Source of the DNA: Schmidtea polychroa
Lineage: Eukaryota
Assembly: GCA_044892525.1 (NCBI GenBank)
Contig: CM097885.1
Coordinates: forward strand, 35,466,001-35,530,000
Reading direction: 5' to 3'
Length of the DNA: 64,000 nucleotides
This document shows positions 9,701-28,479 of the stretch, piece after piece; position 1 is the stretch's first letter; every line of letters begins with the position of its first letter. The notes under the pieces were generated by a model. That model did not search any database, was not told where the DNA came from, and was given only the letters and a program-made list of their open reading frames with translations. The position numbers were made by a program, and so were the translations under genes.

Positions 9701-10830
9701 AGTAGATGGATTGGGCACCGCTGGCACAGGGCACCGCTAGCACAGTACCCCCCCTCCCCCCCGGTCGTAAAATTTTAAAAAAATTCTAAGTCTAAAAGTA
9801 CATTTTTTTCAAGGTCAAATTTAAACAAAGACATATGACTCATCAAAGTCATTGAAACAAAGACCATGACTCATCCTATGACTCATCAAATTTCTCAAGG
9901 TCATTTAAACAAAGACCATGACTCATCCTGTGACTCATCAAGGTCACTTTCAAGGTCATATGACTCATAATATGACTCATCAAGACCAAAAAAATTTTCA
10001 AGGTCATTTAAACAAAGTCCATGACTCATCAAGATCATTTTCAAAGTCGTATGACTCATACTGTGACTCATCAAGGTCATTCTCAAGGTCATATGACTCA
10101 TCCAAGGTCATTTTCAAGGTCATATGAGTCATTCAAGGTCATTCTCAAGGTCATATGACTCATACTATGACTCGTCAAATTTTTTCAAGGTCATATGACT
10201 CATACTATGACTCACCAAAAAATTTTCAAGGTCATATGACTCATACTATGACTCATCAAAAAGTTCCAAGGTCATTTTCAAGGTCATCTGAGTCACCCTA
10301 TGACGCATCAAGGTAATTTTCAAGGTCGCATGACTCATCCAAGGTCATTCTCAAGGTCATATGAGTCATCGCGATGAGTCATCAAGGTCATATTATTATT
10401 TTTAAAAAATATTATTATTTTTATTATTATTTTTAAAAAATATTATTATTTTTAATTTTTCAAAGTTCCCGTCAACGAAAACTAATAATCGATCTCTCAT
10501 TTTAAAGCTCAATCCAAGGCCTTTCGAATGAGCCATATATCCTGTTATTAAGATTATTATTTCTAAAGATATTATTATTATTATTATTATTATTATTATT
10601 ATTATTATTATTATTATTATTATTATTATTATTATTATTATTATTATTATTATTATTAATCTATATACATCGAGTCTATATACTCCGAGTCTATCCGACA
10701 AAATATTTTGTCCCCCTATGGGTAATGCTCACAAGGGTACTGGTCACGCTCAACAAATCAACAAATCAACAAAACATACATTTATTTAAACAATAAAATA
10801 ATGTAAAATTAACAAAGGTAAACTAAATAT
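9701..10830 (+). repeat. Left terminal inverted repeat of element A
   Basis: Reverse complement of 27248-28479; pairing stops at 10830/27248. Contains a TGACTCA/TCAAGGTCA array and an (ATT)n tract. Confidence 0.95.
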
Positions 10831-11458
10831 ATATAGTATGATATTCATTAATCAGTGTTGAACAGGCTTGACACTTGCGAACATTCTTCTCGTGACACTT
10901 AGAACAAACAATTACATGACCACATGGTAAATACAAAACCGAAACTCGATTTCCTTTACAAATTGAACAAGTTAAATACCTTTTCTTAACATCGTTCAGT
11001 TTTTTCGTTAGCTTATTTTCAATCAAATCGGTTTTTGCTATCCAATCATAAATCAATCTACTATATCCCGGTTTCAACCTTAAATACATACAACTCCAAA
11101 AGTATTCATTCAGTGAATCGTTGTTTACTGCTATTTTTTCTAAGTACATTAAATAACAAGATAACTTTAAAATGGATTTCTCATAATTAAATAAATCAAA
11201 CAAATATTCAATAGAGGAATGTTTGAAAATTTTTAAAATATTTATGATTTGCTTATCACTGTAAGTATCATGATTATTTAAAAATCTTCAACTGTGTTGT
11301 TAAAAAATTTCAATGAAATTTCAGAATAGGTTGAACTTAATTTTTCCTTATTTCTAGTAGGACTTCCTTGCTATAAATGGTATATATAAAAAATATTGAC
11401 AAAATAATAAAGTTACCAAATGTGTTACACATTCATCAGTTTTATTTGTAGAAATCAT
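10823..11458 (-). CDS. RING-finger (C3HC4, IAP/MDM2-type) protein, two exons, frameshifted in this copy
   Basis: C-terminal CSICKGNRVSVLYLPCGHVIVCSKC...KCQAC. Inferred exon 1 is 11458-11417 (MISTNKTDECVTHL), then a 46-nt GT-AG intron (11416-11371). A 1-nt loss in the T-run at ~11280 breaks the frame. The stop codon lies inside the TIR. Confidence 0.75.
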
Positions 11459-11768
11459 TAGTAATAAATTTCTTAATAACTAAATTACTTTTGTTTTTAC
11501 ATTTATAAAAATTGTGATAGCCAATCAAAATATAGCTTTCAAAATGTAGAAATTGTAACCATCAAAGCTGTTTAAAGTTTATTATTATTATTATTATTAT
11601 TATTATTATTATTATTATTATTATTATTATTATTATTATTATTATTATTATTATAGTCATTGATATAGCTGCATGCTCACTGCAGACTATATAAAATCAA
11701 CATTAAATACTTATAAAATTATATGAAAACAACAAAATAATGAAAAATCTGGTTACAAATTTTAATTA

Positions 11769-11873
11769 ATATATATATATATATATATATAAATATATAT
11801 ATATATATATATATATATATATATATATATATATATATATATATATATATATATATATATATATATATATATA
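11769..11873. repeat. (TA)n microsatellite
   Basis: Direct inspection. Confidence 0.95.
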
Positions 11874-12011
11874 CAAATTTTTAATAAATACAATTTTTAT
11901 ACAATTTTTATACAATTTTTATACAATTTTTATAAATCACGAAATCACTATATAAATACAAGTTTTTATAAATCAAAATATAAAGTTTTTTTTCTTTTCA
12001 ATTTGTTCTAT

Positions 12012-26101: not shown

Positions 26102-26178
26102 TAAATCTTAGTTAATTAGTGTTTGTAAATTTATTTAAAATTTTATTTAAAAATCAAACAAAATAACTATATTAATTT

Positions 26179-26686
26179 TTATTTAAAAAACCGACATAAA
26201 ACATACAAAATAGCAACACCTGTTGCAAGTTTTAAATAGTTTTTAAATTTGATTTTCTGTTGATCTATTTCCTTGGCATTTCTGGCGAGTTGATTCAGCA
26301 CGCCCCATCCGCCATTGGCTTCAATCCATGGCTGAAACTTTGACTTGATTATCTAGAAAATAAATATTAATAAAATATAGATTATAAAAGTATTACTTCT
26401 TGAGACCACTGATAATAATGTCCCATAGACTTCTTTCCATTATGATCTTCATATAAGCGAACCCTACTAGTATTCGGGTCCACTTCATCTCCTCGTCGCA
26501 TAAGCAGTTAAAAATCCTATTAAAATAGAATTTCTTCGTTTCAAGGGAATCGGAATTGAGCACGTCCTCATAATCAATGTGATTACCTTCTATAATCTTT
26601 TCGGTCCGATCGACCAGGAAACTTAGGCTTTCCATAATATTCTTGTTGACGAGTTCTCTTAAAAGATTTTCCATAAAATGAGACAT
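26179..26686 (-). CDS. Bcl-2 family protein (BH1, BH2, C-terminal membrane anchor), two exons, one frameshift
   Basis: Exon 1 carries BH1-like MKWTRILVGFAY. A 44-nt GT-AG intron spans 26396-26353. Exon 2 (26352-26179) reads IIKSKFQPWIEANGGWGVL...LATGVAILYVLCRFFK*. A 1-nt loss near 26440 must be corrected to join them. Confidence 0.85.
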
Positions 26687-26791
26687 TTTTACAATAATTT
26701 AAAATATGATGTTTTATTTATACTAATACTGTATGATTTTGATTGGTTGATAGACTATAAATGTAAGAGAAAGGTTTTGATTTGATACACC

Positions 26792-27292
26792 ATGAAAACT
26801 ATATTCATATTGCTAATTATTATAACGAGTGTGTGCTCACACAATACAACAATAACAGTGGAGTCTTTTAATAAATCAATATGTGTTTGTCCGAATACAG
26901 CCAAGTTGATGGATATTTTATATATTCTCGATAAACCAAAATGGTCAAAGCATCCAGGAAAAAGAATATCTCAAAGATTGGAGAATTTAGAAAACAGTTA
27001 TGAACTAACATTTGAATATATACAAAATATAAAAATTAAATTGATTGATCATATTGAGGTTTTCAATAACTCTATTGCTGAAAATAAAAAGAATATGAAA
27101 ATTATTGATAAGAAGCATGATTATTTGTTAAAAAAGATTGAATTATTATTAAGAGAAATTCAAACAATCAAAGGATCAATAGAATATCTGAAAATCAATT
27201 CATCGTTACCAATTTCTAACAATATTGCTGCGAATAGTAGTACATCAATATTTAGTTTACCTTTGTTAATTTTACATTATTTTATTGTTTAA
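26792..27292 (+). CDS. Secreted coiled-coil protein with a probable GPI-anchor signal
   Basis: Signal peptide MKTIFILLIIITSVCS, several N-x-S/T sequons, a heptad-like central region, and a small-residue site followed by a hydrophobic tail with no cytoplasmic part (NSSTSIFSLPLLILHYFIV*). Confidence 0.7.
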   Translation: MKTIFILLIIITSVCSHNTTITVESFNKSICVCPNTAKLMDILYILDKPKWSKHPGKRISQRLENLENSYELTFEYIQNIKIKLIDHIEVFNNSIAENKKNMKIIDKKHDYLLKKIELLLREIQTIKGSIEYLKINSSLPISNNIAANSSTSIFSLPLLILHYFIV

Positions 27293-28479
27293 ATAAATGT
27301 ATGTTTTGTTGATTTGTTGATTTGTTGAGCGTGACCAGTACCCTTGTGAGCATTACCCATAGGGGGACAAAATATTTTGTCGGATAGACTCGGAGTATAT
27401 AGACTCGGTGTATATAGATTAATAATAATAATGATAATAATAATAATAATAATAATAATAATAATAATAATAATAATAATAATAATAATAATAATAATAA
27501 TAATATCTTTAGAAATAATAATATTTTTTAAAAATAATAATAAAAATAATAATATTTTTTAGAAATAATAATATGACCTTGATGACTCATCGCGATGACT
27601 CATATGACCTTGAGAATGCCCTTGGATGAGTCATGCGACCTTGAAAATTACCTTGATGATTCAAAGTTTGACTCAGATGACCTTGAAAATGACCTTGAAA
27701 CTTTTTGATGAGTCATAGTATGAGTCATATGACCTTGAAAAATTTTTGATGAGTCATAGTATGAGCCATATGACTTTGGGAAAATTTGATGAGTCATAGC
27801 ATGAATCATATGACCTTGAGAATGACCTTGAATGAGTCATATGACCTTGAAAATGACCTTGGATGAGTCATATGACCTTGAGAATGACCATGAATGAGTC
27901 ATATGACCCTGAGAATGACCTTGAACGAGTCATATGACCTTGAGAATGAGTCATGGTCTTTGTTTAAATGACCTTGAAAATTTTTATGACTCAACGGATG
28001 AGTCATATGACCTTGAGAATGACCTTGAATGAGTCATGGTCTTTGTTTAAATGACCTTGAAAATTTTTATGACTCATCGGATGAGTCATATGACATTGAA
28101 AATGACCTCGATGAGTCACAGTATGAGTCATACGACCTTGAAAATGACCTTGATGAGTCATGGTCTTTGTTTAAAATGACCTTGAAAATTTTTTGGCCTT
28201 GATGAGTCATATTATGAGTCATATGATCTTGAAAGTGACCTTGATGAGTCACAGTATGAGTCATGGTCTTTGTTTAAATGACCTTGAGAAATTTGATGAG
28301 TCATAGGATGAGTCATGGTCTTTGTTTCAATGACCTTGATGAGTCATATGTCTTTGTTTAAATTTGACATTGAAAAAAAATGTACTTTTAGACTTAGAAT
28401 TTTTTAAAAATTTTACGACCGGGGGAGGGGGGTACTGTGCTAGCGGTGCCCTGTGCCAGCGGTGCCCAATCCATCTACT
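27248..28479 (-). repeat. Right terminal inverted repeat of element A
   Basis: Reverse complement of 9701-10830, with a longer repeat array and lacking the ~110-bp module at ~10448-10557. Confidence 0.95.

Follow-up and report, generated by a model that had tools for sequence, protein, structure and literature searches.

Several described systems come close to the mobile element analyzed here, and statements about the cited papers refer throughout to excerpts of their text. Vertebrate Mavericks have terminal inverted repeats, a 6-bp target-site duplication and a conserved core gene set; most copies are decayed, and the intact ones were reported without introns (PMC8097293). Adintoviruses of the Alpha PolB class combine adenain, PolB, an rve integrase, an FtsK-type ATPase and capsid genes, and already include Bcl2 and IAP homologues (PMC8502044). 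In nematode Mavericks the core genes are intronless and introns are found only in host-derived cargo (10.1101/2022.07.12.499685), and the eupolintoviruses of dinoflagellates carry introners (PMC12166617). Among planarians, Polintons are a recognized class in Schmidtea mediterranea that is silenced by PIWI-interacting RNAs (PMC8532177), and Mavericks have expanded in Dugesia (10.64898/2025.12.11.693146). Here we analyze a window of 64,000 nucleotides from Schmidtea polychroa (contig CM097885.1 of assembly GCA_044892525.1, positions 35,466,001 to 35,530,000), which contains a Maverick of 18,779 bp. This element is very probably a dead member of a Maverick/Polinton family that expanded recently and whose genes would undergo nuclear transcription and host splicing. 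With equally high probability, the comparison of its gene models makes it a Maverick/Polinton unlike the described type in that its core genes carry introns at conserved positions.

The locus shares with vertebrate Mavericks the repeats, the duplication, the core genes and the prevalence of decayed copies; it differs from those intron-free elements in ten predicted introns, which fall in polB, protease, integrase and accessory genes (PMC8097293). The vertebrate trait of intronless core genes is not found here, since GT-AG introns are predicted by comparison in the protease, polB and the integrase. The adintovirus core genes named above have counterparts in the element, the capsid genes as candidates; Bcl2 and IAP homologues are reported from adintoviruses, and a close sister of the element's polB matches pfam03175 (PMC8502044). 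The excerpts of that paper contain nothing on spliceosomal introns or splicing, and its sections 3.1-3.2 name neither TBP-like nor single-stranded-DNA-binding protein (SSB) genes. Nematode Mavericks likewise carry intron-containing genes, whereas here the introns extend to the core genes (10.1101/2022.07.12.499685). The eupolintoviruses share spliceosomal introns within a Polinton-type element; theirs, however, are repeated transposon insertions, while those predicted here are old and position-conserved, with one microsatellite intron, in an animal-type genome (PMC12166617). Excerpts of four further papers (PMC11296320, PMC12220804, PMC6431247 and 10.64898/2026.10.13.758929) gave nothing on spliceosomal introns in core genes. 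An earlier note on this stretch, made from the letters alone, had called the element probably undescribed in its host; as a class Polintons are known in planarians (PMC8532177), but we found no description of the gene structure. No account of these introns or of the TBP gene turned up in the literature consulted, and an earlier annotation is possible, for example in Repbase or in supplementary maps.

The element spans positions 9701-28479 of the window (29% G+C), begins with AGTAG and ends with CTACT. It is flanked by the 6-bp sequence AATTGT at 9695-9700 and 28480-28485, which bears out the ends and target-site duplication proposed in the earlier note. The left terminal inverted repeat (9701-10830, plus strand, 1130 nt) holds internal tandem repeats and a TTA microsatellite; the right one (27248-28479, minus strand) has 1232 nt. 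Aligned to each other, the two arms show 970 matches against 43 mismatches, with a perfect terminal match of 53 nt. Pfam recognizes RING, Peptidase_C5, rve plus Chromo, a Pox_A32 ATPase, TBP and, weakly, Bcl-2 in the element, which is a Maverick/Polinton by every firmly testable feature. A search of the genome with integrase exon 2 returned at least 150 matches at 97-100% identity. Both ends were found in 9 of 20 fetched copies, all nine with a perfect 6-bp duplication and a size of 18.6-19.5 kb. The family is therefore young, and it is present in high copy number after recent expansion. The same genome carries sister families with exchanged modules, here named sisterA, f346, f366 and f376. 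These families swap polymerase, capsid and accessory modules: their integrase exon 2 is 78-99% identical to that in the window, and their polB is strongly different.

The window copy itself is dead. Its polB main exon, which stays open in 9 of 20 other copies, contains three in-frame stops (at 15899, 15146 and 12404). The second RING exon is not in frame, the TBP gene has lost 33 nt in frame, and the capsid protein has 404 aa against 407 aa in 17 of 20 other copies. Compared with 14 aligned copies, Bcl-2 exon 1 lacks 7 nt, and it is out of phase; it is in phase and stop-free in 15 of the 18 other copies found. The frame of the basic protein is split here and unbroken in 28 of 30 other copies. 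The description of the element as complete thus holds for its ends and gene set and fails for gene integrity, given the damage to polB and five other genes.

The case for splicing is comparative. In the adenovirus-like cysteine protease (18431-18815, minus strand; Peptidase_C5, 5.5e-6), a predicted exon of only 5 nt is followed by a 37-nt intron (18774-18810). This GT-AG intron follows the 5-nt exon in 31/31 family copies, at a length of 37-40 nt. It recurs at the identical site in f346, f366 and f376, whose proteases are 59-95% identical in amino acids, and in two contigs from metagenomes that share 48-49% of their residues; across families it measures 36-39 nt and its interior varies freely. 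When the frame is read without splicing, a stop appears at codon 3 in all seven elements printed. The protease start is shown for seven metagenome loci, of which two have the intron, four lack it and one is ambiguous. In the four intron-less genes an ATG lies four codons above the same residue, which is the start that splicing predicts. Donor and acceptor thus keep their codon positions down to 48% amino-acid identity, while the interiors diverge and the lengths shift by non-triplets.

Accessory genes repeat this pattern. The Cys-cluster gene (24357-24774, plus strand; intron 24409-24457, 49 nt) has its predicted intron at the same place in sisterA, f346 and f366. That of the acidic gene with a Cys-rich end (25710-26101, plus strand; intron 25726-25766, 41 nt) keeps its place in sisterA and f376, and the intron sequence changes in both genes. 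Within the family, the ratio of nonsynonymous to synonymous substitution rates (dN/dS) of the Cys-cluster gene is 0.04-0.08; a search of known families matched neither it nor the acidic gene. Ends other than GT-AG occur in 7/31 copies of the Cys-cluster gene, 6/29 of the acidic gene and 1/25 of the Bcl-2 gene, and these look like mis-anchored flanks in copies that lack the gene or have diverged there. Conserved position across diverged families likely reflects splicing of the genes. The nine introns that had been proposed earlier (eight of 37-49 nt and one of 108 nt in the integrase) all lie at GT...AG sites, and the claim that the genes depend on a spliceosome is very likely sound. Two metagenome relatives also have apparent introns when inspected by eye, one before polB and one inside the TBP gene (L206:12100-12618 and L233:171-726).

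The earlier note had gone further and described a nuclear virus lineage equipped to block apoptosis and alter transcription. An infectious virus of this kind, whose accessory genes reprogram the host and whose TBP acts on host transcription, is possible, though we consider it on the unlikely side. In its favor, purifying selection acts on the capsid, ATPase and protease genes, metagenome contigs carry related gene sets, and the Bcl-2 and RING homologies hold. More broadly, matches in Pfam or the Protein Data Bank (PDB) uphold the labels RING, TBP-like and Bcl-2 given before, and a predicted fold favors the label SSB-like. The RING-finger gene (10823-11458, minus strand; zf-C3HC4_3, 1.9e-9) has a dN/dS of 0.16-0.23, with exon 1 at 11417-11458 and a predicted 46-nt intron at 11371-11416. 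The Bcl-2-like gene (26179-26686, minus strand, the low end approximate) has a predicted 44-nt intron at 26353-26396. Its exon 1 alone falls below the PF00452 cut-off, and its exon 2 encodes a BH2-like motif and a hydrophobic tail at a dN/dS of 0-0.09. An intron-less relative reaches 32.7 bits against a cut-off of 31.4, has both the BH1- and the BH2-like motif in one frame and matches Bcl-xL at E 1.7e-4. The purifying selection on exon 2, together with this relative, supports the Bcl-2 intron. Against a virus built around host manipulation, these genes are absent from some or all sister families: in the comparison of families, no Bcl-2 gene turned up in sisterA, f346 or f376 and no RING gene in f346, f366 or the f376 element; the third such gene was found in none of them. 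The last is a 166-aa open reading frame (26792-27292, plus strand) with hydrophobic ends and a coiled-coil middle, the 'GPI-type' gene of the earlier note. It matched no known family beyond weak coiled-coil hits, which we took as noise.

The two remaining members of the proposed set point elsewhere. The compact TBP-like gene (23875-24279, plus strand) matches PF00352; in an undeleted copy the match reaches 57.1 bits against a cut-off of 22.9, and the protein aligns with PDB entry 2z8u at E 1.8e-11. It belongs to a family of 109 clusters, and 39 of the 81 loci fetched through it carry Polinton core genes, which makes TBP a trait of the lineage; a scan of viral contigs with TBP gave one distant locus. 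Of the element's 17 predicted starts, 10 have the word TATAAA[CTA] at a distance of 26-75 nt above them, compared with 33 of 671 other ATGs. This points to TBP acting on the element's genes and runs counter to its use on host transcription, so that TBP more likely serves the element's own promoters.

The predicted OB-fold SSB gene (25166-25576, plus strand), of T7 gp2.5 or giant-virus type, rests on a structure model that scores 90.5 in the predicted local distance difference test (pLDDT); an earlier model from six sequences was poor (pLDDT 53). Its best matches are CP312R of African swine fever virus, DUF2815, Enc34 SSB and gp2.5 (Z 7.0-7.4, thus below 8; root-mean-square deviation 2.7-4.5 over 101-123 aligned residues). 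Giant-virus proteins match at E 8e-6, the best Foldseek hit in PDB reaches only E 0.076, and Pfam, Atlas and a distant sequence search gave no match. The resemblance to viral single-stranded-DNA-binding OB folds points to replication machinery. In f346, the SSB gene sits within both terminal repeats, and in a metagenome relative a ubiquitin-conjugating-enzyme gene (L212:225-722, E 1.7e-12) stands beside the SSB and TBP genes. Manipulation of the host is plausible for the Bcl-2 and RING homologues, and it is not a new idea, since adintoviruses already include Bcl-2 and IAP genes (PMC8502044).

The polymerase offers the longest predicted intron. The main exon of the protein-primed DNA polymerase (12012-16081, minus strand) encodes an N-terminal Cys/His motif, an HNH-like insert, and exonuclease and polymerase motifs; those that we take to be catalytic are present in the window copy. 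The frame has no start codon and opens at an acceptor at 16082, before a Cys/His-rich motif conserved in all families. Upstream lies an acidic leader (17298-17933, minus strand) of four stop-free exons, each ending in phase 1, with three predicted phase-1 introns at 17598-17646, 17719-17765 and 17829-17875. A further predicted phase-1 intron of 1216 nt (16082-17297, minus strand), recognized from the comparative donor/acceptor pattern, would join the leader to polB. The acceptor pattern is present in 24 of 26 elements, and in 23 of these 24 the leader ends at a single phase-1 donor, which lies 398-1612 nt upstream, as judged by a donor pattern that was composed after examples had been seen. 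In f366 the donor was recognized by eye, past an insertion. The codon split by the junction would specify cysteine in every family, through either of its two codons. Leaders of sister copies are enlarged by duplicated exon-plus-intron units. The acidic leader thus likely forms the 5' end of polB, to which it would be joined by removal of a tenth intron of 1.2 kb. That long intron had been missed in the earlier note; the three short introns that it named in the leader agree with our models.

If the long splice does not occur, the leader frame reaches a stop shortly past the donor, so a leader-only product could be made. The leader might therefore be a stand-alone regulatory gene like the adintovirus 'Oncoid', with polB starting from another short exon, or alternative splicing might yield both products. 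Oncoid genes have been described upstream of adintovirus PolB (PMC8502044), and the window family has a second candidate intron of 57 nt with an ATG directly above the polB acceptor. We nevertheless regard this alternative as improbable, since the 57-nt intron was not seen in other families and the far donor is in phase 1 in 23 of 24 elements.

Over the polymerase core, the element's polB shares 82% identity with another polB located elsewhere in the window, which matches PF03175 at 2e-27; in the element's own polB protein Pfam gave no PF03175 match. An HNH insert is already known from Polinton PolB (PMC10748475). Motifs with Cys and His, at aa 368 and 484 of the main exon, look like those of an OTU-like domain, a trait of adintovirus PolB (PMC8502044), although Pfam gave no match there. 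At aa 217 (~15430) lies an xxGG-type site that recurs in sister polymerases and that we liken to adenovirus protease cleavage sites; its recurrence suggests that the leader may be removed after translation. The second-family polB is present twice at 56816-64000, in a perfect inverted duplication of 2237 nt with the same leader donor and acceptor, which is either a fold-back structure or an assembly artefact.

A different kind of intron is predicted in the integrase (21416-22537, minus strand; Pfam rve and Chromo), whose two exons would be separated by 108 nt of the form GT(ATT)34TTAG (22042-22149, minus strand). The insert lies within the conserved TDxGxEF motif and has the same short sequence at both of its ends. 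Homologues of the integrase are 56-70% identical, and in the seven closest in the database the motif is uninterrupted. In the window family the insert is GT(ATT)nTTAG of 24-339 nt, starting with GT and ending with AG in 31/31 copies. Twenty loci chosen for short frames, partly overlapping with another set of loci read, include 19 of this form (24-203 nt, six of non-triplet length) and one longer composite insert. The insert is absent from f346, f366 and all 13 metagenome loci shown, and f376 has a mostly 42-nt imperfect insert at the same site. No intron-less integrase of the window family occurs among the loci read, a count that is a lower bound; a scan of viral contigs with the integrase found no match. 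These comparisons indicate that the intron was likely gained in one sub-lineage.

The insert might instead remain unspliced, in which case a hydrophobic stretch would be translated or the gene killed, and intron-less sister families would integrate the copies in trans. The top 30 matches of the exon-2 search, which form an unbiased sample, fit such a view: their inserts of 42-339 nt are always a multiple of three, in frame and stop-free and hence translatable, as is the 42-nt version of a second family. Intron-less integrases do exist in the same genome, and one copy has an insert of only 24 nt, probably below spliceable length. Selection argues in the opposite direction. Between the window family and f376, both of which bear the insert, dN/dS is 0.18 and 0.13 for the two integrase exons (synonymous divergence 0.28 and 0.37), which indicates that purifying selection on the integrase continued once the insert had been acquired. 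Perfect 6-bp duplications flank all nine copies in which both ends were found. A stretch of 8-113 hydrophobic residues in a catalytic motif fits poorly with such selection, and splicing is therefore the best reading of an insert that interrupts an otherwise invariant motif, varies from 24 to 339 nt and keeps GT...AG in 31/31 copies. The unspliced alternative thus appears quite improbable. The intron may have had a single origin, in the insertion of a simple repeat by which a splice-like site was duplicated, after which ATT slippage would have changed its length. New introns in Daphnia are AT-rich, carry a 4-12-bp repeat of the exon end and have been ascribed to the repair of staggered breaks (PMC4202315). 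The short repeat at both ends of the integrase intron would fit such a gain. The likeness lies in a young, AT-rich intron with a flanking direct repeat; the Daphnia introns, however, are in host genes, whereas this one is in the integrase of a mobile element and is almost pure ATT repeat (PMC4202315).

Several points weigh against host splicing of the element's genes, besides the translatable integrase inserts and the way in which the leader donor pattern was composed. In this AT-rich DNA, 12 intron-like GT..AG strings were observed against a shuffled mean of 8.2 (standard deviation 3.0). Being at chance level, the pattern alone is no evidence, and a count of such strings was rejected as support for introns. 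Contigs of four sequencing runs were aligned to a typical copy (1260-10000 of locus L121, with the leader and RING introns outside this range). Among the joints listed, mostly from X7, none falls at a predicted intron (0/15, with 273 further joints outside the listing). In contigs from X2 and X3 the 37-nt protease intron is present unspliced, over 23 and 34 of its nucleotides; these two runs are one sample whose RNA nature is only a guess, and no run is on record as RNA. The predicted introns of 36-44 nt are shorter than the 45-85-bp peak of intron length in S. mediterranea (PMC13594981). The RING intron is the least supported of all: it measures 44-46 nt in the copies found and is confined to the window family, the RING gene of sister families being intron-less. 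TBP, for its part, aligns with solved TBPs over one repeat only (residues ~60-130), where the family has two full repeats that form the saddle. That the short introns are mere AT-rich spacers or products of decay, with genes that start at downstream ATGs or read through, is highly improbable: despite the chance level of GT..AG strings, the frames of the protease, the Cys-cluster gene and the integrase that run through their predicted introns and the absence of a junction among the run-contig joints listed, the codon positions of donor and acceptor are conserved even at 48% amino-acid identity while interiors diverge and lengths change by non-triplets, and intron-less relatives begin at the spliced start.

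The genes that remain to be described lie on the minus strand. The candidate for the double jelly-roll major capsid protein (18843-20057, 404 aa) has a dN/dS of 0.07-0.20; Pfam matches were weak, Capsid_N at 0.0079 and DJR-like at 0.039, each in one of 12 relatives, and alignment against PDB sequences gave no match. A conserved 122-aa gene (20054-20422), presumably PZ-like, lies between the capsid genes and is kept in sister families and metagenome contigs. The candidate for the single jelly-roll minor capsid protein (20415-21470) is an open reading frame with homologues in 12 of 81 metagenome/viral loci; it had no diagnostic family match in Pfam, and we assume its identity from its position. 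A small overlapping open reading frame (22368-22595) conserved in distant relatives starts with MGANPS, which we take to be myristoylation-like. It is followed by a basic core-like protein with a hydrophobic tail (22599-23131; no Pfam match), which we presume to be pX-like, and by the packaging ATPase (23150-23776; Pox_A32, 3.6e-7; dN/dS at most 0.04). Both the Pox_A32 and the Peptidase_C5 matches are above the Pfam cut-off.

Other mobile DNA surrounds the element. At its right flank (28480-29447) lies a fragment of a GIY-YIG/RT-type retroelement, which we assume to be Penelope-like and into which the Maverick apparently inserted. Sequence at 43425-49340 is 75-96% like the terminal repeats of f376 Mavericks and holds no core genes, and is probably a non-autonomous derivative. 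A weak match to a Monjiviricetes fusion glycoprotein at 49704-50219 (E 2.8e-4) is below the cut-off. Two frames at 50357-51354 resemble a broken transposase, presumably of hAT type, with no Pfam match.

Taken together, these comparisons suggest a mechanism in which nuclear transcription of the element's genes would be followed by splicing through the host spliceosome, a step without which polymerase, integrase and protease would not be made. The acidic leader exons would be spliced onto polB through four phase-1 introns, and the 5-nt exon would supply the start codon of the protease. The SSB may assist strand-displacement replication, and the compact TBP may read the TATA-type word above the element's own genes. 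Bcl-2 and RING could be optional, exchangeable genes that delay the death of a cell with an active copy. Adenoviruses provide a parallel, for in their E2B polymerase/pTP messages a DNA virus of the nucleus draws the N-terminus of its polymerase from exons upstream; adenoviruses have neither an integrase nor a target duplication. A more speculative proposal, which we judge doubtful, is that a widespread nuclear-virus lineage of animal Mavericks exists with adenovirus-like split genes, in which replication, integration and maturation are gated by splicing, the element's genes are switched on by a mini-TBP of its own, and slippage of the ATT intron sets the output of integrase.

Core genes of animal Mavericks have been described and screened for as intronless, and an annotation blind to introns would class such elements as decayed or cut their proteins short. 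If true, position-conserved introns would be direct evidence of expression via nuclear RNA polymerase II and the spliceosome. The integrase intron would, in addition, be a dated gain, with intron-less sisters beside it in one genome and with 150 or more copies of varied length, in which the minimum that a new intron needs could be tested.

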